From contig JBMOPW010000020.1 in the NCBI GenBank assembly GCA_049322915.1, positions 160,001 to 224,000 of the forward strand: 64,000 bases of DNA, written 5' to 3'. The position numbers were made by a program, and so were the translations under genes. Shown in pieces: positions 3,645 through 45,311 of this stretch; position 1 is the stretch's first letter, and every line of letters starts with the position of its first letter. The stretch is from Candidatus Zhuqueibacterota bacterium. GTDB lineage: Bacteria > Zhuqueibacterota > Zhuqueibacteria > Thermofontimicrobiales > Thermofontimicrobiaceae. Below the pieces are notes generated by a model, which saw only the letters and a program-made list of their open reading frames with translations, ran no database searches and was not told the DNA's origin.

Positions 3645-3801
3645 ATTGAGCGATTAGCGATTAGCAACCAGCCATCAGCTCTTACAAATTCAATCAGTTA
3701 AGCCTGACCCGCTTTTTCTGTTTTAGGTGATTTCAGGCTTGTATCTAACGCCATGTTATTTCTTTCGCTGAACGATGATCGCTGTAAGCTGACCGCTTAT
3801 T
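3645..3801. repeat. Gene-less heptamer inverted-arm element (copy 1)
   Basis: Left arm attgagc-gattagc-gattagc-aaccagc-catcagc (3645-3679); right arm gctgaac-gatgatc-gctgtaa-gctgacc-gcttatt (3767-3801). Confidence 0.8.
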
Positions 3802-6088: not shown

Positions 6089-9000
6089 ATGAAAAAAGTT
6101 TTTCTGTTTACACTCATGGTGTCAATTTTGTTAACTTCATTTGTTTTTGGGCAGGATGCAAAGATGTACCGGGGTGATCGGACGACTTTGCAGACCGATG
6201 TCAACGATTTTGTAGGGTATGTGCCCAACGCAATTGTTGTGAAATTCAGTGCCTCTTCATTGAATACTATCGAAACATCCTCGCTTTTGCAGGGCATCAC
6301 AGGCAACAGGCAGATCGATGCGTTGAATCAGAAATACAATGTCCGGGCGTTTCAGGAAATGTTCCCCAATGCAGAAACCAGGTTTTTCGAAGGCAAACGA
6401 GTTGAATTAGCTGGCTATTATCGAATTACGTTTAAATCCCAATTGAAAAACGTCGAACAGGTTGTCGCGGAATATGAAGCGATTCCCGGCGTTGAAAAAG
6501 CTGAACCGATTGGCGTTCATGCGGTTCATGCCGATCCCAATGACGGCAACTATTCCGATCAATGGCATCTCAACCAGACCAACGACAATGACGTGGATGC
6601 TCCTGAAGCCTGGGATGTTGAAACCGGCAATTCCAGCATCATCGTTGGAATTCTGGATACCGGCGTTCGGTATTTCCACAAAGACCTTGGCGGCGCCAAT
6701 GCGTCGTATTCCAATCCCCAGGGAACGGATGGCAACATGTGGATCAACTGGACCGAGAAAAACGGTACGACCGGCGTCGACGATGACGGGAACGGCTATG
6801 TGGACGACTGGGTAGGCTGGGACTTTGTGAACGATGCGGATGATTATTACTATCCCATCTGGCCTGGTGAAGACGGCGATGTTGAAGACAACGATCCCCG
6901 CGATTTTAATGGACACGGCACGCATTGCGCCGGCAACGTGGGCGCCATCAATAACAACGGCTACGCGACCTGCGCGCCCTCTGGTGGCTGGGGAAGCGAT
7001 GGCAATGGCGTGAAAGTTATGGCCCTGCGAGTTGGCTGGTCAGTGAAATACCTCCGCAAGAATTACGAAGTCGGACTTATTCGAATGGATTTCGCTGCTC
7101 AGGCCATGTATTACGCTGCCAACAACGGCGCGAAAATCATCTCCTGCAGTTGGGGATCTTCCAACAGCGGCGGTATCGAAGATGCTTTGAATTACTTCGT
7201 CGGCAGCGGCGGATTGATCTTCAAATCAGCCGGCAATAGCGACAACGAAAGCACCGATTTTATGACCGCGCGAAGCGATGTCATCGCCGTTGCGGCGAGC
7301 GACCAGAACGACTGTCGCTCCGATTTTTCTAGCTACGGCACCTGGGTGGATATCACCGCCCCCGGCACGGACATTTTGAGCCTTTACGAAAACCATGCGG
7401 ATACCCAGAATGACTACGTCGCAACCTTAAGCGGCACTTCGATGGCGTCGCCATTGGCTGCCAGCGTTGCAGCGTTGATCTGGTCACAGAATCCCGGTCA
7501 GAGCGCGAACGATGTAAAACAAAAACTGTTCGATACTGCGGACAATATTTATACTGAATCATGCAATGCCAGCTATGCCGGCAAATTGGGCGCTGGCCGC
7601 GTGAATGCGTTCGAAGCTGTCAGTGGCTCAGGACCGGTTGCGCCAACCGCGCAATTCTCCGGCGCCCCTGTTTCTGGGAACGCGCCACTGGTCGTGAATT
7701 TCACGGACATGTCGACCGGCACGGTTGAATCGTGGTCATGGAACTTCGGCGATGGCGGCACCTCGACCTCGCAGAATCCATCTCATACCTACTCGGCCGC
7801 TGGAACGTACAGCGTCGAATTGACGGTCACTGGCCCGGCTGGTTCCGATTCTGAACTGAAAACAAATTATATCACCGTCACCATTCCTGCGCCGGTTGCG
7901 GCATTTTCAGGAACACCAACTTCCGGAACCGCTCCGCTGAACGTGAGCTTCACCGATGCGTCCACCGGAAATATCAGTTCCTGGTCATGGAATTTTGGTG
8001 ATGGCGGCGCCTCGACTGCCCAGAATCCAAGCCACAGCTACGCGGCGGTTGGCACATACACGGTTGCGTTGACCGTGACCGGCCCCGGTGGTTCGGATAC
8101 TGAAACCAAAACCAATTATATCACTGTCAATCCTGAACCAGTACCTCCAGTCGCAGCATTTTCAGGCGTCCCGACATCAGGCAATGCCCCGTTGTCCGTG
8201 GTTTTCACGGATGCTTCGACCGGTGATGTTACATCCTGGTCGTGGACATTCGGTGATGGTGGTACATCTACCGCGGAAAATCCGACTCATGTTTACAACG
8301 CTGCCGGCGCCTACACAGTCGCGTTGACCGTCACCGGCCCGGCCGGCTCGGATACAGAGACGAAAACCAATTATATCACTGTTACAGTAGCAGCCCCGGT
8401 GGCCGCATTCTCCGGCACACCAACATCCGGCACAGTGCCACTTACAGTGAATTTTACCGATGCGTCAACTGGCAGCGTTTCAAGCTGGTCATGGAATTTT
8501 GGCGATGGTGGAATGTCCACAGCGCAGAATCCATCACATCAATATACGACTGCCGGAACCTACACCGTGTCGCTGACAGTGACCGGCCCTGGCGGCTCGG
8601 ACACTGAAACCAAAACCAATTATATCACTGTCAATGCGCAACCTGTCCCACCGGTGGCGCAATTCTCAGGCTCGCCCACTTCAGGGACCGCCCCGCTCGC
8701 AGTGAATTTCACCGATGCTTCCACTGGCCAAATTTCAAGCTGGTCATGGAATTTTGGCGATGGCGGCACGTCGACGCAGCAGAATCCGTCTCATACCTAT
8801 TCCACCGCTGGCACATACACAGTCGCTTTGACAGTCACCGGCCCGGGCGGTTCAGACACGGAGACAAAAGCGAGTTATATCACCGTGAATCCAGGCGCTC
8901 AGAATTTAATGCATGTCAACGACGTCAAAGTGACCAAAATTCAGGTGCTTAAAAAATGGAATTATGGCAAAGCTGAAGTGCAAATCGTCGATCAAAACGG

Positions 9001-9568
9001 CGCCGCAGTCAGCAACGCGACAGTTACCGGCGAATGGACACAGGGCGCAAGCGGCACTGCCACCTTCACCACTGGCTCCAATGGCTGGGGCAGCGTATCG
9101 ACTTCCTACAGCAAAACCGCGACAGTCTATTGCTTCAGGGTGACCAATGTGACAAAGACCGATTGGACCTATGATTCTGAAGCCAACGTCGAGACCTGGG
9201 CGTGCAGCGACGGTTCTTCCGGCCTCGATATATCGCTACCGAAATTGTTGACCAGTCAGGCGCCTGTGGTTTCCGATGAGGCGCAGTTGGATGAAGACGA
9301 TATCGTCGCTTATCCCAATCCGTTCAATTCTTCCACAGTGATCACGTTCTTCGCTCCATCCGCCGGACGGGTGACCGTGGATATTTACAACATCCTGGGT
9401 GAGAAAATAACCACACTCATCGACCAGGAAGTTCAGGTTGGTCCGACCACAGTGCGCTGGAACGGAACCAATGCGAACGGAGACATTGTGAGCGGCGGCT
9501 ATTATTTCTACAATATCCGATTCAACACTGGACAGACTATTACCAAGAAAATGTTATACCTAAAGTAA
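6089..9568 (+). CDS. Secreted S8 (subtilisin-like) serine protease with 5 PKD domains and a C-terminal FlgD/T9SS-type-A-like sorting domain
   Basis: Catalytic motifs ILDTG, HGTHCAG and SGTSMASP; five WSWNFGDG PKD repeats; C-terminal AYPNPFN...KKMLYLK. Confidence 0.95.
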   Translation: MKKVFLFTLMVSILLTSFVFGQDAKMYRGDRTTLQTDVNDFVGYVPNAIVVKFSASSLNTIETSSLLQGITGNRQIDALNQKYNVRAFQEMFPNAETRFFEGKRVELAGYYRITFKSQLKNVEQVVAEYEAIPGVEKAEPIGVHAVHADPNDGNYSDQWHLNQTNDNDVDAPEAWDVETGNSSIIVGILDTGVRYFHKDLGGANASYSNPQGTDGNMWINWTEKNGTTGVDDDGNGYVDDWVGWDFVNDADDYYYPIWPGEDGDVEDNDPRDFNGHGTHCAGNVGAINNNGYATCAPSGGWGSDGNGVKVMALRVGWSVKYLRKNYEVGLIRMDFAAQAMYYAANNGAKIISCSWGSSNSGGIEDALNYFVGSGGLIFKSAGNSDNESTDFMTARSDVIAVAASDQNDCRSDFSSYGTWVDITAPGTDILSLYENHADTQNDYVATLSGTSMASPLAASVAALIWSQNPGQSANDVKQKLFDTADNIYTESCNASYAGKLGAGRVNAFEAVSGSGPVAPTAQFSGAPVSGNAPLVVNFTDMSTGTVESWSWNFGDGGTSTSQNPSHTYSAAGTYSVELTVTGPAGSDSELKTNYITVTIPAPVAAFSGTPTSGTAPLNVSFTDASTGNISSWSWNFGDGGASTAQNPSHSYAAVGTYTVALTVTGPGGSDTETKTNYITVNPEPVPPVAAFSGVPTSGNAPLSVVFTDASTGDVTSWSWTFGDGGTSTAENPTHVYNAAGAYTVALTVTGPAGSDTETKTNYITVTVAAPVAAFSGTPTSGTVPLTVNFTDASTGSVSSWSWNFGDGGMSTAQNPSHQYTTAGTYTVSLTVTGPGGSDTETKTNYITVNAQPVPPVAQFSGSPTSGTAPLAVNFTDASTGQISSWSWNFGDGGTSTQQNPSHTYSTAGTYTVALTVTGPGGSDTETKASYITVNPGAQNLMHVNDVKVTKIQVLKKWNYGKAEVQIVDQNGAAVSNATVTGEWTQGASGTATFTTGSNGWGSVSTSYSKTATVYCFRVTNVTKTDWTYDSEANVETWACSDGSSGLDISLPKLLTSQAPVVSDEAQLDEDDIVAYPNPFNSSTVITFFAPSAGRVTVDIYNILGEKITTLIDQEVQVGPTTVRWNGTNANGDIVSGGYYFYNIRFNTGQTITKKMLYLK
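7637..8890 (+). repeat. Five tandem PKD-domain coding repeats (~250 nt each)
   Basis: Repeated P.AxFSGxPxSGxAPL.V.FTD.STG.....WSW.FGDGGTST..NP.H.Y...GTY.V.LTVTGP.GSD.E.K.NYITV. Confidence 0.95.
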
Positions 9569-29939: not shown

Positions 29940-29991
29940 GCAGAGCGCATAGCCTAAATTTACGCTATGCGCTCTGCGCCATGCTCTATGC
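29940..29991. repeat. Junction heptamer hairpin between permeases B and A
   Basis: gcagagc-gcatagc / gctatgc-gctctgc-gccatgc-tctatgc; perfect 14-bp stem. Confidence 0.85.
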
Positions 29992-29995
29992 ATTT

Positions 29996-37495: not shown

Positions 37496-37652
37496 GCATA
37501 TCGCAGAGCGTTATACGTGAGACGAAAGACGAAAGAATTTAGCGTCTCGCATCTCTCGTTTGACGTTTCACAAGTTTCACGCTATGCCCTTTGCACCCCA
37601 CGCTATTCGTACCTCCAACTTTCCATCCGCCAAAGGACGGATTTCATCACTA
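37496..37652. repeat. Junction module between permeases E and D
   Basis: Near-copy of 32407-32563. Confidence 0.9.
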
Positions 37653-40013
37653 CTCACAATGCAAGGATTCAACTGGATTTGTCACTGCCGCTTTGATTGC
37701 TTGATAACTCACCGTAAAAATTGAGATCACCAGCACCACCATCGCTGACAGCACAAAAGGCTCCCATCCCAGATTGATTCGATAGGAAAAGCCTTGCAGC
37801 CATTGGCTCGCTGCCCAATACGCCACAGGCCAGGAGATAATGTTGGCAATAAGTACCCACAGGGTAAATTCTCCGGACAGCAGCAGAACGATGCCCGCAA
37901 CCTTTGCGCCCAATACTTTGCGGATGCCGATCTCTTTGGTGCGTCGTCCCGCCATGAACGACGCCAGTCCGAACAGCCCCAGGCAAGCGATGAAGATAGC
38001 CAGCCCTGAGAAATAGCCAAAAATTTTTCCGATCTTACGTTCGGTCGTGTATAAATTTTCAATTGATTCGTCAAGGAATTGGTATCGAAATGGATGTCCG
38101 GGAACGAACTTTTTCCACTTTTGCTCTAAATAACTGACGATCCCTTGTTCGCTGCCACTGTATTTAACGCAGACGAAGAAACCGTTGCGCAAGCTAATAA
38201 CTTTTGGCTGGATGAAATTCCGCAGCGAGCCGCCATGATAGTCCTTCACCACACCGATGATCGTGCCCGTTTTCCCATTGATCGTCAGGCGCTTGCCGAT
38301 CGGCTCATTCAAATCCATTCTTTTGATGGCCGATTCATTCAGAACAAAATTGGCGTCATCGCTGATGAACTCCCGTGAATAAAATCGACCTGCTGCCATT
38401 TTTAAACCAAAGGTTTTTAAAAAATCATAGTCGCCCAAATCGGAAAAAAGCATGATTTCTCTGGTCGGATCTTTGCCTTCCCACTGGACTTGTGTCGTTC
38501 CGCCAAAACCAGGCCCAGGTGGAAATGCCTGGCTCACGCTGAGAATATTTGGATTTTGGAGCAACTCATTTTTGGCGGCTTCGAAATTCATGCCGTATTG
38601 ACCATACGAGGCAAATGAAATGATATTATTCTGGTCAAAGCCCAAATCTTTATTCTGAATAAAATGAAGCTGCCAATAAATAACCGCAGTCAGGATGATC
38701 AGTGTGATGGTGATCGAGAACTGGCTGACCACGAGCACCTTCCGCAGGGCGCCGCCTTTGCCAGCGCTGAATTGAGCCATGGCTCTAAAAACGCCCGCAG
38801 GCTGAAATGATGATAAATAGAGAGCAGGGTAACTGCCTGAAACAATACCTGTTAATATGACAATCCCTAACAAGACGAACAATGAACTCAAATTTTTCGT
38901 CGGGTCGAGCGAAAGCTGCTTGCTGGCAAGCGAGTTAAAAGTCGGCAGTAGAATTTCCACAAGAATGATGCTTACAAATAGCGCTAAAAATGATAACAGT
39001 AAGGTTTCACCCAGAAACTGGATGATGATATCCCGCCGCTGGGCGCCAGTCACTTTGCGGATGCCGATTTCTTTCGCTCGTGCGCCGGAGCGGGCGGTCG
39101 AAAGGTTGGTGAAATTGATGCAGGCTAATGCCAGGATCAAGATGGCGACGATAGAAAAAATGTAAATATACGTGATATTACCTGGATTGGGGTAGACAAT
39201 GTTCCAGCTATTCAGGTGCATCGAATGTAAATGAACTGATTTTAACGGCTGGAGGTCGAGGGTGATTTTGGAATCGGGAATATTTTTGATGACCATGCCC
39301 GCCATTTTTTGTTTGAGATCATTCAGATCGATATTTTTTTTGGTCAGGATATAGGTCGTAAACTGAGTGTATGTCCAGCTATCCAGCTTGGATTCCCGCC
39401 ATTCGGTCATGTTGATGACAGGGAAGATGTAGTCGAACTGGAGATGGGAATTGTGCGGAATATCTTTCATGACTCCTGTGACCTTCAAATCCGTATCCGA
39501 CATCTGAACGATTTTCCCCATTGGCTCGTCATCGCCAAATATTTTTTTCGCTAACCTTTCGGTGAGCACAATTGAATAGCGATCGTGTAAAGCCGTTTTG
39601 GGATCGCCTTTGAGAAATGGAAATTGAAATATTTCAAAGAAAGAAGGATCGGCGCAGGCCAGCTTTTCGGTTATAAAAATTTTGTCGCCCAGATGAAGAT
39701 ACCAGTTCGACCAGCCTGATTGGACTCGAGTGAAATTTTCAACTTCGGGATATTCTTCAACCAGTGTAGGACCAATGAGTGAAGGTGATCCAACCGAGCG
39801 AATTAAATTGCCGCCCGACCTGTCTTCGGAAATGACCCGAAAAATGTGATCGTTATTTTTGTGGAATCGATCCCAACTCAATTCATCTTGCACCCACAGC
39901 AGGATGAGCGTACAGACGGCCATGCCAATAGCCAGTCCGATGACATTCAAGAACGAATAGCCTTTATAGCGTTTGATGTTTCGCAGTGCAATTGTCAAAT
40001 AATTTTTGAACAT
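37650..40013 (-). CDS. MacB/FtsX-type ABC permease, array member E
   Basis: AAGGAG RBS, MFKNYLTIALRN...TNPVESLHCE. Confidence 0.95.
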   Translation of the reverse strand: MFKNYLTIALRNIKRYKGYSFLNVIGLAIGMAVCTLILLWVQDELSWDRFHKNNDHIFRVISEDRSGGNLIRSVGSPSLIGPTLVEEYPEVENFTRVQSGWSNWYLHLGDKIFITEKLACADPSFFEIFQFPFLKGDPKTALHDRYSIVLTERLAKKIFGDDEPMGKIVQMSDTDLKVTGVMKDIPHNSHLQFDYIFPVINMTEWRESKLDSWTYTQFTTYILTKKNIDLNDLKQKMAGMVIKNIPDSKITLDLQPLKSVHLHSMHLNSWNIVYPNPGNITYIYIFSIVAILILALACINFTNLSTARSGARAKEIGIRKVTGAQRRDIIIQFLGETLLLSFLALFVSIILVEILLPTFNSLASKQLSLDPTKNLSSLFVLLGIVILTGIVSGSYPALYLSSFQPAGVFRAMAQFSAGKGGALRKVLVVSQFSITITLIILTAVIYWQLHFIQNKDLGFDQNNIISFASYGQYGMNFEAAKNELLQNPNILSVSQAFPPGPGFGGTTQVQWEGKDPTREIMLFSDLGDYDFLKTFGLKMAAGRFYSREFISDDANFVLNESAIKRMDLNEPIGKRLTINGKTGTIIGVVKDYHGGSLRNFIQPKVISLRNGFFVCVKYSGSEQGIVSYLEQKWKKFVPGHPFRYQFLDESIENLYTTERKIGKIFGYFSGLAIFIACLGLFGLASFMAGRRTKEIGIRKVLGAKVAGIVLLLSGEFTLWVLIANIISWPVAYWAASQWLQGFSYRINLGWEPFVLSAMVVLVISIFTVSYQAIKAAVTNPVESLHCE

Positions 40014-40030
40014 GATTTTCTCCTTAGCTT

Positions 40031-40213
40031 GCGTGGGGGAACGCATGGCGCAGAGCGTTATACGTGAGACGTGAGACGAAAGACGCGAGACGAAAGAATT
40101 TAGCGTCGCACATCTCTCCTTTGACGTTTAACAAGATTCACGCAATGCCCTTTGCACCCCCCTCTATTCGTACTTCCAACTCTCCATCCGCCAAAGGACG
40201 GATTTCATCACTA
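40031..40213. repeat. Junction module between permeases F and E
   Basis: Near-copy of 32407-32563 and 37496-37652, with five cgtgaga-type units in the left inner arm. Confidence 0.9.
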
Positions 40214-42601
40214 CTCACAACGCAAGGATTCAACTGGATTTGCCAGGGCAGCGCGGATTGTCTGGAAACCGGATGTCGCCAGGGCGAATGCAAGTTCAAA
40301 TGCCACCGCCAGCATGAACAGCCACCAGTTGACCTGAGTTCGATAGGCAAAATGATTCAACCAGTAATGCATGAGGCAGAATGAGAAAGGAATAGCAAGC
40401 GCGCTGGCGCCTAAAATCCAGATGATGAACTGGCGGGAAATGAGAAACGTGATGCCGAATGCGCTTGCGCCCATCACTTTTCGGATGCCGATTTCTTTCG
40501 TACGGTTTTTTGTCACGAACGAGCTGAGACCGTAAAGCCCCAGACAGGAGACGAACAGAGCCAATCCGGTAAAAATGGATAAGAGTTCCCCCGACTTTTC
40601 TTCGACGCGGTAGAGGCGCGAATAGACATCCTCTAAGAAGCGATGATTTAAGGCATACCCGGGCAGGACGCTGGTCCAAACCTCTCTCACGTGCGAAATT
40701 GTCTCCGGTATTTTGTCAGGATTCAGTCTCATTGCAACTACAATGGTCTTCCGGGTATCGATCAAAATGAGCGCGGGATTGATTTTCTTGTGAAACGATT
40801 GAATGTGAAAATCCCGCACAATGCCGATCACACTGACAGCATCGCTCCGGCCCGGAATGTGAAGCAGAGCCCCGACAGGATGAGCCAGTCCCAATGCGCG
40901 CACAGCCGATTCATTCAAAATGACGCTGCCCATAGCATCCGTGGAGATTTCGCGCGAGAAATTCCTTCCCTCAATGAACGCCAGCTTCATGGTTTCGGCA
41001 AATCCAAAGTCAGCGGGCAGCGCTTGCAGATTCACCGAGTTTTCGGCCGGGCTGCCGGCTTTTGTGACGGAGATGTTGAAGCGGCTGTTGATGCCGGGCA
41101 AGGTGTACGCGCTGGAAACACCGAGTACATTCGGATTTTTCAATAACTCGTCGCGAAGCACTGAGTACTTTCCTGCTGCGGCGTCGTCATTGAGCGGGAA
41201 ATTGAGGAGCAGCACATTGTTCTTGTCGAATCCAAGTCCGGCGTTCTTCATATAGTTCAGTTGCTTGTAAATAATCGCCGTCCCCAGGATGAGAGTCAGG
41301 GTCAACGCAAACTGCAGGACGACGATGAATTTTCGAAGATTGAGCTTATGAGTGAGGCCCAGTCGCCGTTTCTTCAGAATGTCCACGGGCCGGAATCTGG
41401 ATAAAAACAGCGCCGGGTACCCGCCGGCAATGAGACTCACTGTGACGATCAGTCCGATGATGAGGATGCTGAATTGCAGCTTGAGCGTCGGTCCCATGTA
41501 AAAATCGGTTCCCACGAAGTCGTAAAATAGTGGCCGCAGTAATTCGAAAATGACAAATCCAACGGCGATGGCGAAGAGCGTAATGAGGAACGATTCGATC
41601 AAAAGCTGATGAATGAGCTGCGGGCGGCTTGCGCCGACGACTTTGCGAATGCCGATTTCCCGGGCGCGGTTCAAATAGCGCGACGTGGATAGGTTGATAA
41701 AATTGAAGCAGGCAATGATGAGAACGAAGAAAGCAGCGGCTAAAAATATTGTCACATACATTTTGTTACCTTTGGGCCCGAGGTCGTAGTTGGAGCGCAT
41801 ATCCCAGTGAATTTCCGAAAGCGGCAGCGGTATGAATTTCATGCGCAAAGCGAACCAGTCATTGGTATTCTCCTTCAGCATGTCCGCCAGCCTGCTCATG
41901 ACCGGCCCAATGGTTGCTCTCTCTTTCAACAGTAAGTAGGTGAAATCATCGCCCCATTGATCCCAGGGCGCAGCACTGACTTTGCCGCTCGCCGCAAATG
42001 TGGCGTAGGAAATGATGAACTGGCAGTTGAGATGGGTGTTGCGCGGGAAATCCCGCATGACGCCGGTGATTTTTAAAGGGGAGTCCTGATAGACTAACGT
42101 GCGGCCAACAGGATTTTCGGCGCCGAAATATTTCCGAGCCTGCGATTCGGTCATGACCAGGGAAAACGGTTCGGAGAGGGCATTTGCCGTATCGCCCTGG
42201 ATGAGATCAAACGTGAAGATGTCGAAAATCCCTGGCTCAGCGAGAAAGACATAGTCCTCGCGGATGGATTCGTCATTCGGCCTCGTGAAAATAGCGTCGT
42301 AATCTCGGCGAATGCGAATGGCGCGTTCGACTTCAGGCGACTGCGTATTCAGAGCCGGGGCGAGTGCGGGCATGGAGCCGGCGAAAATCATTTTGCTCTC
42401 CGGCGTGCCCCACTCCAGCATGATGCGATAGATGCGGCTTTTTTTCTCATGGAAATTCTCAAAGCTGGTCTCGTACATGACGTAGGTCAGCATCACCATG
42501 CAAACAGCCAGCCCAACGGCGAGACCGAGGATATTGATTGCTGAGAATCCCTTGTTCCGGCCGACATTGCGGAACGCGATTTTGATATAGTTCTTTAACA
42601 T
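40211..42601 (-). CDS. MacB/FtsX-type ABC permease, array member F (GC-rich)
   Basis: MLKNYIKIAFRN...ANPVESLRCE. Confidence 0.95.
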   Translation of the reverse strand: MLKNYIKIAFRNVGRNKGFSAINILGLAVGLAVCMVMLTYVMYETSFENFHEKKSRIYRIMLEWGTPESKMIFAGSMPALAPALNTQSPEVERAIRIRRDYDAIFTRPNDESIREDYVFLAEPGIFDIFTFDLIQGDTANALSEPFSLVMTESQARKYFGAENPVGRTLVYQDSPLKITGVMRDFPRNTHLNCQFIISYATFAASGKVSAAPWDQWGDDFTYLLLKERATIGPVMSRLADMLKENTNDWFALRMKFIPLPLSEIHWDMRSNYDLGPKGNKMYVTIFLAAAFFVLIIACFNFINLSTSRYLNRAREIGIRKVVGASRPQLIHQLLIESFLITLFAIAVGFVIFELLRPLFYDFVGTDFYMGPTLKLQFSILIIGLIVTVSLIAGGYPALFLSRFRPVDILKKRRLGLTHKLNLRKFIVVLQFALTLTLILGTAIIYKQLNYMKNAGLGFDKNNVLLLNFPLNDDAAAGKYSVLRDELLKNPNVLGVSSAYTLPGINSRFNISVTKAGSPAENSVNLQALPADFGFAETMKLAFIEGRNFSREISTDAMGSVILNESAVRALGLAHPVGALLHIPGRSDAVSVIGIVRDFHIQSFHKKINPALILIDTRKTIVVAMRLNPDKIPETISHVREVWTSVLPGYALNHRFLEDVYSRLYRVEEKSGELLSIFTGLALFVSCLGLYGLSSFVTKNRTKEIGIRKVMGASAFGITFLISRQFIIWILGASALAIPFSFCLMHYWLNHFAYRTQVNWWLFMLAVAFELAFALATSGFQTIRAALANPVESLRCE

Positions 42602-42673
42602 GGCGTTCTCCTGCCTGATCGATTAAAAGAGAGAGCCTTCAGTCCGTGACTCACGGAGGCTCGACTGAAGGGG

Positions 42674-42865
42674 TTGGAAATCCCGGGCAGTCAGTTTTTT
42701 TCAAGCGTAATTTTATTAATGAAAATAGCTCACCGGGAGAAAAAGCGCTCGCTGCATCGGACACCAAAAAGGCAGTGATTGACCCATGTGAATGAGCGAT
42801 TTCACTTGCCCGGCACATCATTCCTGATCGCGCGGCTGCAACGCCCGGAACGCCCGGATTTCCAA
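42674..42865. mobile_element. ~190-bp element with 14-15-bp terminal inverted repeats
   Basis: TTGGAAATCCCGGGC (42674-42688) / GCCCGGATTTCCAA (42852-42865). Confidence 0.45.
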
Positions 42866-43555
42866 TTACACCCGGAATCTCTCCTTGACATTTTCCGTGA
42901 CCACCTGGCCGTCGAACAGATGAATGATGCGATGGCAATATTCAGCATAGGCCGGCGAGTGGGTGACCATGATGATCGTCGTGCCGTTCTCGTGCAGGTC
43001 GGACAACAGTTTCATCACCTCATCCCCGTGAGCTGAATCCAGGTTGCCAGTCGGCTCGTCCGCCAAAATGAGCCGGGGTTGAGCGACTACAGCTCGTCCC
43101 ACGGCGACGCGCTGCTGCTGCCCGCCGGAGAGCTGCTGTGGGAAATGATTTTTCCGATGCATCATCTGCATCTGCTCCATCACTTCATTGACGCGCGTTT
43201 TTCGTTCGGCTGACGAATAGCCCAGATACAGCAGCGGAAGTTCAATGTTTTCGAACACCGTCAATTCATCGATTAAATTAAAACTCTGAAAGACAAATCC
43301 GATATTGGCTTTTCGCAGATTCGCCCGCTGCCGTTCAGAATACCGGGATACCTCCTGGTCCAGAAAGTAGTACTCGCCGTCGTTGGGATTGTCCAGCAGC
43401 CCCAGCAGGTTGAGCAGCGTGGACTTCCCGCATCCGGACGGTCCCATGATGGCCACAAACTCTCCCTGCGTGATTTCGATGTTCACGTTATTCAGAGCAG
43501 TCGTTTCCACTTCCTCGGTCATGTAGATTTTTTTGAGATTTTTGGTTTTTATCAT
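42866..43555 (-). CDS. ABC transporter ATP-binding protein (LolD/MacB-type)
   Basis: [29 protein letters not shown] and VTH. Confidence 0.96.
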   Translation of the reverse strand: MIKTKNLKKIYMTEEVETTALNNVNIEITQGEFVAIMGPSGCGKSTLLNLLGLLDNPNDGEYYFLDQEVSRYSERQRANLRKANIGFVFQSFNLIDELTVFENIELPLLYLGYSSAERKTRVNEVMEQMQMMHRKNHFPQQLSGGQQQRVAVGRAVVAQPRLILADEPTGNLDSAHGDEVMKLLSDLHENGTTIIMVTHSPAYAEYCHRIIHLFDGQVVTENVKERFRV

Positions 43556-43621
43556 TGGTTTGTTCTCCGACTTATTGATCCTTCATTATTCTCCTGTATG
43601 GATAGAGATGTTTTAGGTTTT

Positions 43622-44066
43622 AAGATGCGTTCAGCGTTCAGCGTTCAGCGGTCAGCCTTCTGCCTTTAGCTTTTGTATCAATCCAGCCAACATTTTTTTT
43701 ACTTCTTCAATTTCATTCAACAATTTTATATACGTGTTTTCATCGAGATAATGTAAATCGTAGGCTAAAAGTGTCTGGTATTCAAGTTCACTCGCTGATC
43801 CCATTGCAATTTGCAGGAAGCGAGCAAAATCAAGGTCGCTGTTTCGTCCACAACCTTCAGCAATATTTGATGGGATAGAAATACTGGATCTACGGATTTG
43901 GCTCGTCAATCCATAGATTTCCTCTTTTGGAAATGCACGAGTGTTTTTATAAATTTGCAAGGTTAGCTCATGGCTTTTCTGCCATACATTCAACTTCCTA
44001 AAATCTTTCATTTTAATTCCTCCTGTTTTTATCTGATTGCTAATTGCTGAAAGCTGATAGCTATTT
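43622..44066. mobile_element. Four-helix-bundle gene unit bounded by inverted heptamer-repeat arms
   Basis: Left arm (gttcagc)x3-ggtcagc-cttctgc-ctttagc (43629-43670); right arm tctgatt-gctaatt-gctgaaa-gctgata-gctattt (44032-44066). Confidence 0.7.
43652..44011 (-). CDS. Four helix bundle protein (23S rRNA IVS protein / Avd-like family)
   Basis: FRKLNVWQKS, FPKEEIYGLTSQIRRS..SIPSNIAEG.GR and FLQIAMGSASE; GGAGG RBS; AT-rich relative to its neighbours. Confidence 0.95.
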   Translation of the reverse strand: MKDFRKLNVWQKSHELTLQIYKNTRAFPKEEIYGLTSQIRRSSISIPSNIAEGCGRNSDLDFARFLQIAMGSASELEYQTLLAYDLHYLDENTYIKLLNEIEEVKKMLAGLIQKLKAEG

Positions 44067-45311
44067 CAGAATCAGCTTATCCTTGTCCCCGAAATTGTCG
44101 TAGCTGGAAGTGATCACCTGTTCACCGGGGACAAGGCCGGCGGAGATTTCGTACACCTGGGTGTTGCTGCGGTGAATCTGAATCTTCCGTTTCACAGCAA
44201 AATGGCCGGAGCGGTCGAGAATATAGACCCACTGGCCGCCGGTGCTTTGATAGAATCCGCCGGTGGGCAGTAATATCGCGTCGGTGAGATCGCCCAGGTC
44301 GAGGCGAATGTGAAGCGTCTGCCCGCGCCGGATGTCAGCCGGAGGATCTCCGAGGAAGTCCAGATCGATTTCAAACCGTCCCTCTTTCACCTCAGGGTAA
44401 ACGCGCGTGACTTCGAGGCTATAGGTGCTGTTCGATAAATCGAATCGCCCAGTTCTGCCAATTTCGACGCGCGCGATGTAATGCTCGTCGATACTGGCGC
44501 GCACATTGAAGCTATCCAGCACATCGATCTGGCCCAATCGTTCTCCGGCGGACTTCGATTCGCCGATCTCCGCATTGAGCGAAGTGAGCAATCCGGCGAT
44601 GGGCGATTTAATGGTCAAATTCTCCACCTTCTGTCTGGCAATATCAAGATTAGAGGTCATCCGCTTCAACGACGCGTTCATTTCCTCAATTTGTGACAGT
44701 CTGAAGAGCGAATCCTGTCGGAAAGTCTCGATGGCCAAAACCCGGCGTTTGGTGACATAGTCGAATTCGTCTTTGATTTCTTCGAACTCCTGGTCGGAAA
44801 TGAGCTTTTGTTCCGCTAACACCTTATTCCGATCATGGAGCCGGTTCAGTTTTTTCAGGCGATAATCCAGATCATTCAATTCCGTCAGCAGGTTCAAACG
44901 ATATTGCTCCATCTGAAGACGCGTGGCCCGCAGATTATCGCTCTGGCGGAATAGCTCCGCTTCCCGTTGCATGATATTCAAAATCAAATTGGTGTTGGTG
45001 AGTTTGAGAATTTTGTCGCCAACCCTGACAAACGCGCCGGCTTCCACAAATTTCTCATCGACGCGACCGCCTTCGTCGGCGTCGAGGTAAAATGTCATCA
45101 CCGGATGGACATTGCCGATGATCGGTATGAATTCCTGGAATGGGCCGTGGGTGACCGTGGAAATGGTGATCCGCTCGCGATCCACATTGAGTTTGGAACT
45201 GCTGTCGCTGAAAATGAAGATATAAAGGACGAAGAGCGCAAATGCCGTTATGCCGGCAATCCCAATAATTTTTTTAGACGTCCATTTTTTCTTTTGAATT
45301 GGTCGATCCAT
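44061..45311 (-). CDS. Efflux periplasmic adaptor subunit (HlyD/MacA family)
   Basis: N-terminal TM, lipoyl-like EGGRV...GD.IL, coiled coil, KSPIAG and GL.PGEQVI. Confidence 0.92.
   Translation of the reverse strand: MDRPIQKKKWTSKKIIGIAGITAFALFVLYIFIFSDSSSKLNVDRERITISTVTHGPFQEFIPIIGNVHPVMTFYLDADEGGRVDEKFVEAGAFVRVGDKILKLTNTNLILNIMQREAELFRQSDNLRATRLQMEQYRLNLLTELNDLDYRLKKLNRLHDRNKVLAEQKLISDQEFEEIKDEFDYVTKRRVLAIETFRQDSLFRLSQIEEMNASLKRMTSNLDIARQKVENLTIKSPIAGLLTSLNAEIGESKSAGERLGQIDVLDSFNVRASIDEHYIARVEIGRTGRFDLSNSTYSLEVTRVYPEVKEGRFEIDLDFLGDPPADIRRGQTLHIRLDLGDLTDAILLPTGGFYQSTGGQWVYILDRSGHFAVKRKIQIHRSNTQVYEISAGLVPGEQVITSSYDNFGDKDKLILK

Follow-up and report, generated by a model that had tools for sequence, protein, structure and literature searches.

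In a MacAB-type efflux operon of a member of Candidatus Zhuqueibacterota, the adaptor and ATPase genes are separated by a small gene of the four-helix-bundle family PF05635/TIGR02436, which is enclosed by two inverted arrays of heptanucleotide repeats (the arms). The locus was analyzed within a stretch of 64,000 nucleotides (contig JBMOPW010000020.1 of GenBank assembly GCA_049322915.1, positions 160,001 to 224,000 of the forward strand), referred to here as the window, in which positions are counted from its first letter. Related genomes carry a different insert, or none, at the same spot, and the unit formed by gene and arms therefore behaves as exchangeable. It is very probable that the whole cassette is exchanged at the DNA level, and, with less assurance, the unit is probably best described as an exchangeable cassette akin to the intervening sequences (IVSs) of 23S rRNA that bear an open reading frame (ORF), lodged in this case in an mRNA operon.

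To our knowledge, the very large PF05635/TIGR02436 family has solved structures and lacks a known function, the excess of heptanucleotide repeats in bacteria has been reported for almost twenty years and is unexplained, and the rRNA IVSs, whose mode of movement is not known, are still termed selfish elements. The locus described here links these three subjects in a testable manner. A single operon junction is seen here filled, filled in another way, with a hairpin only, or empty, and the anatomy is strict (sense orientation, arrays anchored at stop codons).

One Junction with Several Occupants

Orthologs of the adaptor gene were found in 14 other genomes of 40 searched, and the junction between adaptor and ATPase genes was readable in 13 of these, giving 14 junctions with that of the focal genome (G000; G001 denotes its same-genus relative, or congener, and C-numbers denote contigs). 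A PF05635 gene scoring above the cut-off occupies the junction in 8/14 genomes and a sub-threshold relative in 1/14, these genes coming from at least four protein clades. Orthologous operons without the unit, which an earlier examination of the letters alone (hereafter the sequence-only reading) had proposed to look for, exist in the other 5/14, and among the occupied junctions others hold a different unit.

A-type genes with xTCAGx arms, whose proteins are 59-60% identical, occur in G000 and G039, while B-type genes with GACGTGA/GAAACGT arms occur in G001, G003, G005 (with an in-frame TAA), G010, and G020, and a C-type gene with GCATAGAGC arms occurs in G019. A D-type gene, detected as a full-length sub-threshold PF05635 match (24.7-27.5 bits), stands between GACG-type hairpins in G018 and is the second gene in tandem in G020. 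The junctions without a bundle gene hold a gene-less period-7 hairpin of GCAGAGC type (G033), an ordinary GC hairpin (G035), or a short gap (G023, G028, and, with a solo GGCTGAx run, G038). In addition, the orthologous ATPase gene of G011, on a contig that does not reach the adaptor, is directly preceded by an A-type cassette that is 64% identical and shares the CAGCGTT units, and is followed by a C-type cassette. The small D-type gene (MK[DE]IKECNLW...; L012 965-1312 and L009 118-474, in G018 and G020, at 24.7 and 27.5 bits) may represent an unrecognized branch of the PF05635 family.

Between the focal genome and its congener, the adaptor and the ATPase are 83% and 91% identical, respectively, compared with 40% for the bundle gene, which in G001 is flanked by GAAACGT arms. 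Homology between the two genomes stops at the adaptor stop codon and weakly resumes ~70 nt before the ATPase start, and the stop codon itself differs (TAG in G000, TGA in G001) because it belongs to the array. The B-type genes group together with support of 100/99 in a tree of 24 rows, to the exclusion of the focal gene; an approximately unbiased (AU) test on this tree rejected sisterhood of the G000 and G001 genes (p-AU = 0.00026, at a cost of 96 log-likelihood units) for a pair that was defined by genus and site but picked after the first tree had been seen. This rejection, combined with only 40% identity at the same site, indicates that the unit was exchanged at the junction and did not merely diverge there, and the range of occupied, hairpin-only, and empty states implies that it is gained, replaced, and lost at the DNA level.

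The Focal Cassette and Its Arms

The bundle gene matches PF05635 with 149.3 bits (cut-off 33.8; E 5e-44; positions 1-105 of 106) and TIGR02436 with 149.4 bits (cut-off 24). The cassette extends from the adaptor stop codon to ~70 nt upstream of the ATPase gene, in sense with the operon (Table 1), and its GC content is 39.2% (43620-43979), compared with 51-56% in the flanks and 48.8% in the genome. On the plus strand, Tandem Repeats Finder (TRF) reports GCGTTCA in 4.9 copies with 88% matches at 43627-43660; this 3' array spans the stop codon of the gene (43652-43654), and its 7-nt phase continues into the KLKAEG codons. On the same strand, 44033-44066 consists of GCTGAxx units that reach into the stop codon of the adaptor. 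The AT-rich gene of 119 aa between adaptor and ATPase described in the sequence-only reading is thus recovered as ORF and profile match, as are its arm boundaries, with one array in the adaptor stop codon and the other over KLKAEG and the gene's own stop. A scan for promoters and terminators gave nothing within the cassette beyond shuffle expectation, and Rfam gave no match, rRNA included, anywhere in the window.

The mutual complementarity claimed for the arms was also borne out: it amounts to 76% across 25 nt, with two further registers, and the arms pair together in both the minimum free energy and the centroid folds of the 491-nt transcript, where the stem is built of 4-6 bp blocks separated by internal loops of 1-2 nt each 7 nt. 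Two other measures were set aside, namely the duplex energy of the 90-nt flanks, which did not discriminate, random GC-richer pairs giving lower energies, and a strict search for inverted partners, which flagged 15/150 arrays and missed the focal pair, its scoring being too harsh for degenerate arms.

Short assembly contigs of DNA runs X2-X4 match parts of the cassette with 0-1 differences, and the remaining read-contig matches from four DNA runs are mostly cross-matches to conserved ABC motifs. A single contig of X4, of depth 2, links 43673 to 44039 with 13 other letters replacing the gene; it may come from an allele without the gene or from some other, unrelated hairpin of AGC type (80% likeness, short sides) and is not used as evidence.

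Other Cassettes and Period-7 Arrays in the Focal Genome

Among 16 candidates, three PF05635 matches were identified in the focal genome, on contigs C20, C26, and C36. Each of the three genes stands between period-7 arrays whose cores are complementary, and each has a different heptamer: xTCAGCx in the focal cassette, CAGATGG-type on C26, and CAAAxxx-type on C36. For the arms of the C26 and C36 cassettes, 0/3000 random pairs score as well. With lag-7 arrays defined by at least 19 of 28 matching positions, 5/6 flanks of the three genes fall among the 150 such arrays in 6.25 Mb; because all three cassettes are armed and nearly all of their flanks belong to so small a set, the association of gene and arms exceeds chance. 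At 20/28 matches, the genome contains 102 arrays at lag 7 and 2-37 at lags 5, 6, and 8-11, and period 7 accounts for 9/27 TRF rows in the window.

Contig C14 of the same genome contains a very long array (CCAGATA x20.9, C14:704967-705132) and ~600 nt in which arrays abut and their units shift (e.g., ATCCAAT, CAAATCA, and AATCACC; C14:709294-709905).

Enrichment and Anatomy across the Family

Genomes of the same class contain 162 PF05635 matches, distributed over 39/41 genomes. In-frame stops are present in 20 of the 150 matches listed, a pattern of decay that is, on sequence grounds, typical of a dispensable element. Two sets of loci were compared. The relatives set comprises 92 cassettes, namely 88 of the 89 listed matches with at least 74.9 bits (one was dropped at a contig edge) and four weaker ones from fetched or own loci, and the cross-phylum set, from an independent scan of species genomes, comprises 80 loci in 80 species of 17 named phyla. 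Among the relatives, lag-7 arrays occur in 45/90 upstream and 46/87 downstream flanks, compared with 5/85 outer upstream and 3/82 outer downstream control stretches, which are mostly coding, and 2/92 coding stretches; both flanks carry arrays in 36/85 loci, and other lags are rare (10-12 flanks at lag 8, 0-7 at the rest). The cross-phylum set gives 41/80 upstream and 47/79 downstream flanks, compared with 0/79 and 1/77 outer and 1/78 coding stretches, with at least one arm in 52/79 loci across 13/17 named phyla. The enrichment of arms around homologs, which the sequence-only reading had put forward as a check, is therefore seen in both sets (172 cassettes), in about half of the flanks versus 0-6% of control stretches. 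A rough intergenic check, in which all 150 arrays of the focal genome (one per 42 kb) were assumed to be confined to one tenth of it, gives an expectation of ~5% for a 210-nt flank versus 50% seen.

In 121/163 loci, complementarity between the flanks exceeds the 95th percentile of controls paired between loci; these comprise 82/102 lag-7 loci, 24/27 lag-8/lag-9 loci, and 15/34 array-less loci. Since the complementarity extends to the latter two classes, the constant feature is a gene within an inverted repeat, and heptamer arrays are the usual, though not the sole, way of building that repeat.

The arrangement of the parts is strict. Wherever its two neighbors are co-directed, the bundle gene is in sense with them, in 55/55 loci of one count and 61/61 of another (116/116). 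For the 5' array, the median start lies 3 nt ahead of where the upstream stop codon ends (45/72 within -15 to +10) and the median end 30 nt ahead of the start codon, with space left for a ribosome-binding site; the 3' array starts at a median of +4 nt past the stop codon of the bundle gene and inside the ORF in 40/98 loci. Among the 218 arrays, 4 units is the commonest length and 4.4 the median, and the tail of the distribution reaches 23. The focal cassette conforms to all of these rules of orientation, array anchoring, and array length.

Three armed cassettes of relatives, L039 (G035:C62), L024 (G015:C155), and L056 (G017:C180), adjoin distant ABC-ATPase paralogs with 32-36% identity, and efflux-type ABC operons may be recurrent hosts of cassettes.

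Arm Type and Protein Clade

In a tree of 77 proteins, from which 15 of the 92 cassettes were excluded for internal stops or odd length, well-supported clades have one heptamer type across genomes. Pairs from different genomes with at least 55% protein identity show flank homology in 27/116 cases and occupy non-homologous sites in 89/116. Heptamer-profile similarity is 0.66 for pairs with at least 55% identity at non-homologous sites (n = 39; 64% at or above 0.65), compared with 0.49 for same-site pairs with 35-45% identity (n = 13; 0% at or above 0.65) and 0.48-0.50 for background pairs. A Mantel test of protein versus heptamer in the relatives gives r = 0.30, with 0/2000 permutations as high, and in the cross-phylum set the same heptamer type is shared by 38% of 13 pairs with at least 60% identity. 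Judged from these comparisons, arm type follows protein clade and not insertion site, above ~55-60% protein identity only. The co-variation of heptamer and clade that the sequence-only reading proposed to examine is accordingly present at short range and fades below that level. Its view of gene and arms as one unit, by comparison, agrees with the enrichment of arrays at homologs, the tracking of clade by arm type, and the many closely related pairs at non-homologous sites.

Gene-Less Hairpins

Besides the cassette, the sequence-only reading had listed gene-less copies starting at 3645 and 19061. Both are complete heptamer hairpins, with left arms that are 87.5% identical over 40 nt, but they resemble the cassette arms in heptamer type only; moreover, the start at 3645 marks just one arm of the first hairpin, whose partner arm lies at 3763-3800. 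Six more full-length copies of the 3646-3800 element exist in the genome at 75-84% identity, with a consensus stem-loop in which 89% of cells are paired. No bundle-gene remnant was found in the hairpin loops and no similarity to the cassette beyond the arms, the genome having only three PF05635 matches, and the proposal that these hairpins derive from the cassette in the manner of MITEs (miniature transposable elements with inverted repeats) is not sustained. The gene-less hairpins are instead genuine dispersed families with conserved loops, one of which, of GACG type, is found ahead of each permease gene of the operon.

Some of these hairpins are related in arm type to cassettes of other genomes. 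In total, 32/134 gene-less arrays of G000 match an arm type of the relatives' cassettes more closely than 95% of a column-permuted null does (~7 expected), the best matches being mostly to A-type and B-type arms. The G001 operon combines a B-type GAAACGT-armed cassette with GAAACGT-type hairpins at other junctions, and G000 retains hairpins of that type though it no longer carries a B-type gene.

A further gene-less element of five GGTTCxx heptamers (35-37 nt) is near-unchanged at ~20 sites of G000 (e.g., C7:43304-43340, C2:90929-90965, and C34:564482-564517) and at times faces an inverted partner 100-1000 nt away; a GGTTC-type bundle gene is absent from G000 and present in relatives (L059 and L072).

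Proposed Mechanism

The unit would consist of one PF05635 gene with its own ribosome-binding site within two inverted arrays of 4-5 heptamers. It would lack its own promoter and be read within the operon transcript, and the sense-only orientation, the ribosome-binding site, and the absence of promoters above chance all fit such expression. On the transcript, the arms would pair as an imperfect stem of ~20-25 bp that is interrupted by internal loops at 7-nt intervals, and RNase III would probably cut this stem, as it does for rRNA IVSs. The stem, the protein family, and the heptamers match the IVS of Coxiella, and the genome encodes an RNase III gene, so that processing at the stem appears to be the most likely RNA-level role, a proposal by analogy that stands at about an even chance. 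Such a cut would release a small mRNA encoding the bundle protein and would uncouple the parts of the operon transcript on either side; if so, cassettes would alter the stoichiometry of their host operons, here an efflux pump.

Five chains each have been deposited for 2GSC (E 2.4e-23) and for 2RLD (E 4.9e-08), which are solved relatives of ring-pentamer form, and the focal protein may assemble likewise. The protein might bind heptamer arrays of its own type, and binding to its own arms is offered as a tentative prediction. It is rather doubtful, although conceivable, that the protein acts as a sequence-specific reader, with a five-subunit ring on four to five 7-nt units, which would make the cassette self-recognizing. 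TRAP binds GAG repeats, and the ring would be TRAP-like in this respect. A corollary, likewise improbable, is that the gene-less hairpins are targets of the protein, either as an RNA-processing regulon or as non-autonomous copies. Three different heptamers in one genome, the joint occurrence of GAAACGT cassette and hairpins in G001, and the excess of gene-less arrays matching relatives' arms count in favor of self-recognition, whereas the persistence of orphan hairpin types and the fading of the protein-heptamer link below ~55-60% identity count against it. If it were true, it would provide a first function for the PF05635 family and an explanation for the excess of heptanucleotide repeats.

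Opposing Evidence and Alternative Explanations

Several results weigh against an IVS-like, RNA-processed cassette. The focal stem taken alone is weak, since the 491-nt transcript has a fold z-score of -1.73 with 6/100 shuffles folding equally well, and the local-alignment score of the arms (13.5) is matched by 1.9% of 3000 random genome segment pairs; the case depends on its context. Across the family, 34/163 loci are without a periodic array, 19 of them also without a significant inverted repeat, entire protein clades in the 77-protein tree are armless, and ~12 of 42 two-armed loci deviate from the simple arrangement (A A' - gene - A A', or A - gene - A A'). The idea that array length is quantized at five units was rejected on the length distribution given above. 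Beyond close relatives, heptamer type is shared by 8% of 176 cross-phylum pairs at 50-60% identity, the cross-phylum Mantel r is 0.14 (1/2000 permutations as high), and the short-range link between arms and protein appears to fit plain co-inheritance as well as protein recognition. Gene-less hairpins of GACG, GGTTC, and GCAGAGC types are many in G000, whose three bundle genes are of other types, and hairpins therefore persist without a cognate protein. Finally, the cassette contains no transposase or reverse transcriptase (RT), its sole ORF being the bundle gene, and thus no moving enzyme. The sequence-only reading had already remarked on this absence; the two RT matches of the genome lie on C34 and C16, contigs other than those of the cassettes.

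The alternative that survives best is that the arms are DNA-level recombination sites, which would form attC-like hairpins or cruciforms in single-stranded DNA and be used by a recombinase, either of the host or acting in trans, or in template switching during replication. It concerns movement and is compatible with an IVS-like cassette, although the RNA stem would then be a by-product. The precision of cassette replacement, from the upstream stop codon to the outer edge of the 3' arm, is what such sites would produce, cassettes or hairpins may stand in tandem (L009 and L012), and hairpin-gene-hairpin layouts resemble attC-ORF-attC. The gene-less hairpin families, with copies still 75-84% identical, evidently multiply as DNA, and same-clade cassettes at non-homologous sites (89/116 pairs) are likewise accommodated. 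However, no recombinase was found in or beside the cassette, where no search aimed at an integron integrase was made, and target-site duplications are not visible at either the adaptor-stop edge or the 3' edge of the focal cassette, although inverted termini are present. A symmetric DNA element would also be expected in both orientations, in contrast to the uniform sense orientation of the family, which selection for expression could explain as well. Overall, this alternative has a modest chance of being correct.

A less probable explanation, with a slim chance, is that the arms belong to the site, as hairpins of the lineage's repetitive extragenic palindromic (REP) sequences, bacterial interspersed mosaic elements (BIMEs), or simple repeats, and that bundle genes landed or were preferentially kept there. 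The ~100-150 lag-7 arrays for three bundle genes in the genome, the share of period-7 rows in the window, the hairpin at every operon junction in both G000 and G001, and the gene-less heptamer hairpin at the focal junction of one relative (L014) all lend it some appeal. Against it, the heptamer type tracks protein clade across sites and does not track the site when proteins differ, as in the congener, whose cassette at the same site has another heptamer, and enrichment holds in phyla sampled regardless of repeat content, with 0-1 of 77-79 outer controls.

Lastly, an old, vertically inherited, fast-evolving accessory of the efflux operon, with arms serving as attenuator or processing signal, is very improbable: a PF05635-type gene does occupy the junction in 9/14 genomes of the class, as would suit the conserved operon member that the sequence-only reading had named as its refutation, and the B-type genes (four family genomes and one of the order) group with two members from other sites in one well-supported clade, but the occupants span several clades and differ in the congener far more than their flanking genes, the focal gene is ~60% identical to that of G039 in another family and 64% to that of G011 with its sisterhood to the congener gene rejected, the same clades recur in unrelated contexts, with published cases in cas operons (PMC3936711, in the passages available) and rRNA genes, and 5/14 orthologous operons work without the gene.

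Features of the Window

The minus-strand MacAB-type efflux operon of the window consists of the adaptor, ATPase, and MacB-type permease genes, and the coordinates of its parts, of the cassette, and of the gene-less hairpins are compiled in Table 1. The 264-nt gap between the ATPase gene and the first permease gene (42602-42865) is GC-rich and has no heptamer array, which sets it apart from the operon's other junctions; G001 does not have this gap and carries a second ATPase-like ORF (8772-9464) in its stead. At 8051-8894 of the window, a tandem repeat of period 255 (3.3 copies, 72% matches) probably encodes a repeated protein domain. Elsewhere in G000, inverted pairs of long poly-G/poly-C runs, 11-38 nt apart, were observed at C14:509480-509584 and C7:180213-180295.

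Table 1. Coordinates of the focal cassette, its host genes, and gene-less hairpins (window positions).
Feature	Position	Strand	Remarks
PF05635/TIGR02436 four-helix-bundle gene, AT-rich, 119 aa	43652-44011	minus	ORF and profile matches
5' arm (gene sense), ~5 degenerate heptamers, xTCAGCx on transcript	44033-44066	minus	includes adaptor stop codon 44061-44063
Spacer from 5' arm to start codon	44012-44032	minus	Shine-Dalgarno-like AGGAGG ~7 nt before ATG
3' arm, GCTGAAC-type heptamers on transcript	43627-43660	minus	overlaps last codons and stop of the gene
Spacer from 3' arm to ATPase start codon	43556-43626	minus	congener spacer aligns weakly; probably native intergenic DNA
HlyD-type membrane-fusion adaptor gene	44061-45311	minus	upstream host gene
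ABC ATPase gene	42866-43555	minus	downstream host gene
MacB-type permease genes	40211-42601; 37650-40046	minus	
Gene-less hairpin, AGC/GCT heptamer arms, 75-nt conserved loop	3646-3800		one of 7 full-length genome copies
Gene-less hairpin, AGC/GCT heptamer arms, ~45-nt loop	19061-19185		~ten partial relatives in genome
Gene-less GACG/CGTC-type heptamer hairpin between MacB-type permease genes	40062-40135		sisters at 37510-37580 and 32424-32500
Gene-less GCAGAGC/GCTCTGC-type hairpin	29940-29995		

Comparison with Known Systems

Integron gene cassettes are promoter-less sense genes with attC sites that form imperfect inverted-repeat hairpins, and they can be swapped or arrayed in tandem at one site. 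The focal cassette resembles them in its single, probably promoter-less sense gene, its hairpin-forming boundaries, and its exchange or tandem arrangement at a site, whereas its tandem-heptamer arms on both sides and the restriction of cargo to one gene family set it apart; the neighboring efflux and two-component ORFs include no integrase or attI, on an inspection that involved no search aimed at IntI. REP/BIME and MITE-type intergenic palindromes are dispersed multi-copy elements. The gene-less hairpins are similarly dispersed, multi-copy, located behind stop codons, and endowed with conserved loops, but differ in having period-7 arrays as arms; no RAYT or transposase was seen, no search aimed at either having been made, and the gene of the cassette is not a transposase.

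The accessory protein Avd of diversity-generating retroelements belongs to a distantly related four-helix-bundle fold family that gives only weak matches, with the Avd models falling below their curated cut-offs (bAvd 24.7 bits, cut-off 40; NF033474 30.2 bits, cut-off 80), and, unlike Avd systems, the cassette has no reverse transcriptase, template, or variable repeats nearby. The three bundle proteins of the genome gave no match to PADLOC defense families at E up to 0.01. Across 20 diverse members, Q38 and E52 show no variation, and conservation of S45 and N49 is at least 90%. The focal protein has the motif RxxxSxxxNxxE (R41, S45, N49, and E52), corresponding to the family motif GxxRxxxSxxxNxxE given in the passages available of PMC3936711, which also report 18 such genes within cas operons, interpreted as possibly Cas-related.

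Inverted heptanucleotide repeats have been described as GGGAATC in Xanthomonas and GGGGAYT in Nostoc (PMC4692102), as MTYCTGA and GGACCGG elements in Geobacter metallireducens (PMC2700814), and as TAACTGA repeats in Beggiatoaceae (PMC4679880). According to the available passages of these papers, such arrays resemble the cassette arms in being intergenic, in mostly comprising four or five 7-nt units, and in having conserved core positions, and they are often paired convergently as potential stem-loops of unknown function. They are treated there as G-quadruplex formers or regulator sites, without a gene carried between them, and the terms 'four helix', 'intervening sequence', and 'S23' have 0 occurrences in those passages. 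No description of heptamer-armed cassettes outside rRNA was found in the literature listings and passages covered.

The closest counterpart is the IVS in helix 45 of Coxiella burnetii 23S rRNA, in which terminal inverted repeats and GACAGAT heptamers accompany an S23p ORF and which is excised by RNase III; rRNA IVSs of Leptospira and Salmonella are cited in the same source (PMC4990558, here and below in the passages available). The family is also present in rRNA inserts of CPR bacteria (bioRxiv 10.1101/2024.02.27.582315, in part). Unlike these, the focal cassette is hosted not by a 23S or 16S rRNA gene but by a protein-coding operon, and none of 12 related loci lacking flanking ORFs lies in rRNA according to Rfam. 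Both arms of the cassette are heptameric, and the heptamer varies between cassettes. RNase III excision has been shown for rRNA IVSs and would apply to the focal cassette by analogy, while the same-site exchange found here is not described for the Coxiella IVS in those passages (PMC4990558). The two nevertheless share a common plan, in which an S23p/PF05635 ORF prone to frequent decay lies in the loop of an inverted-repeat stem, in sense with the host transcript, and is accompanied by tandem heptamers, the GACAGAT array of Coxiella forming the 5' end of the element with a strain-variable number of units (PMC4990558).

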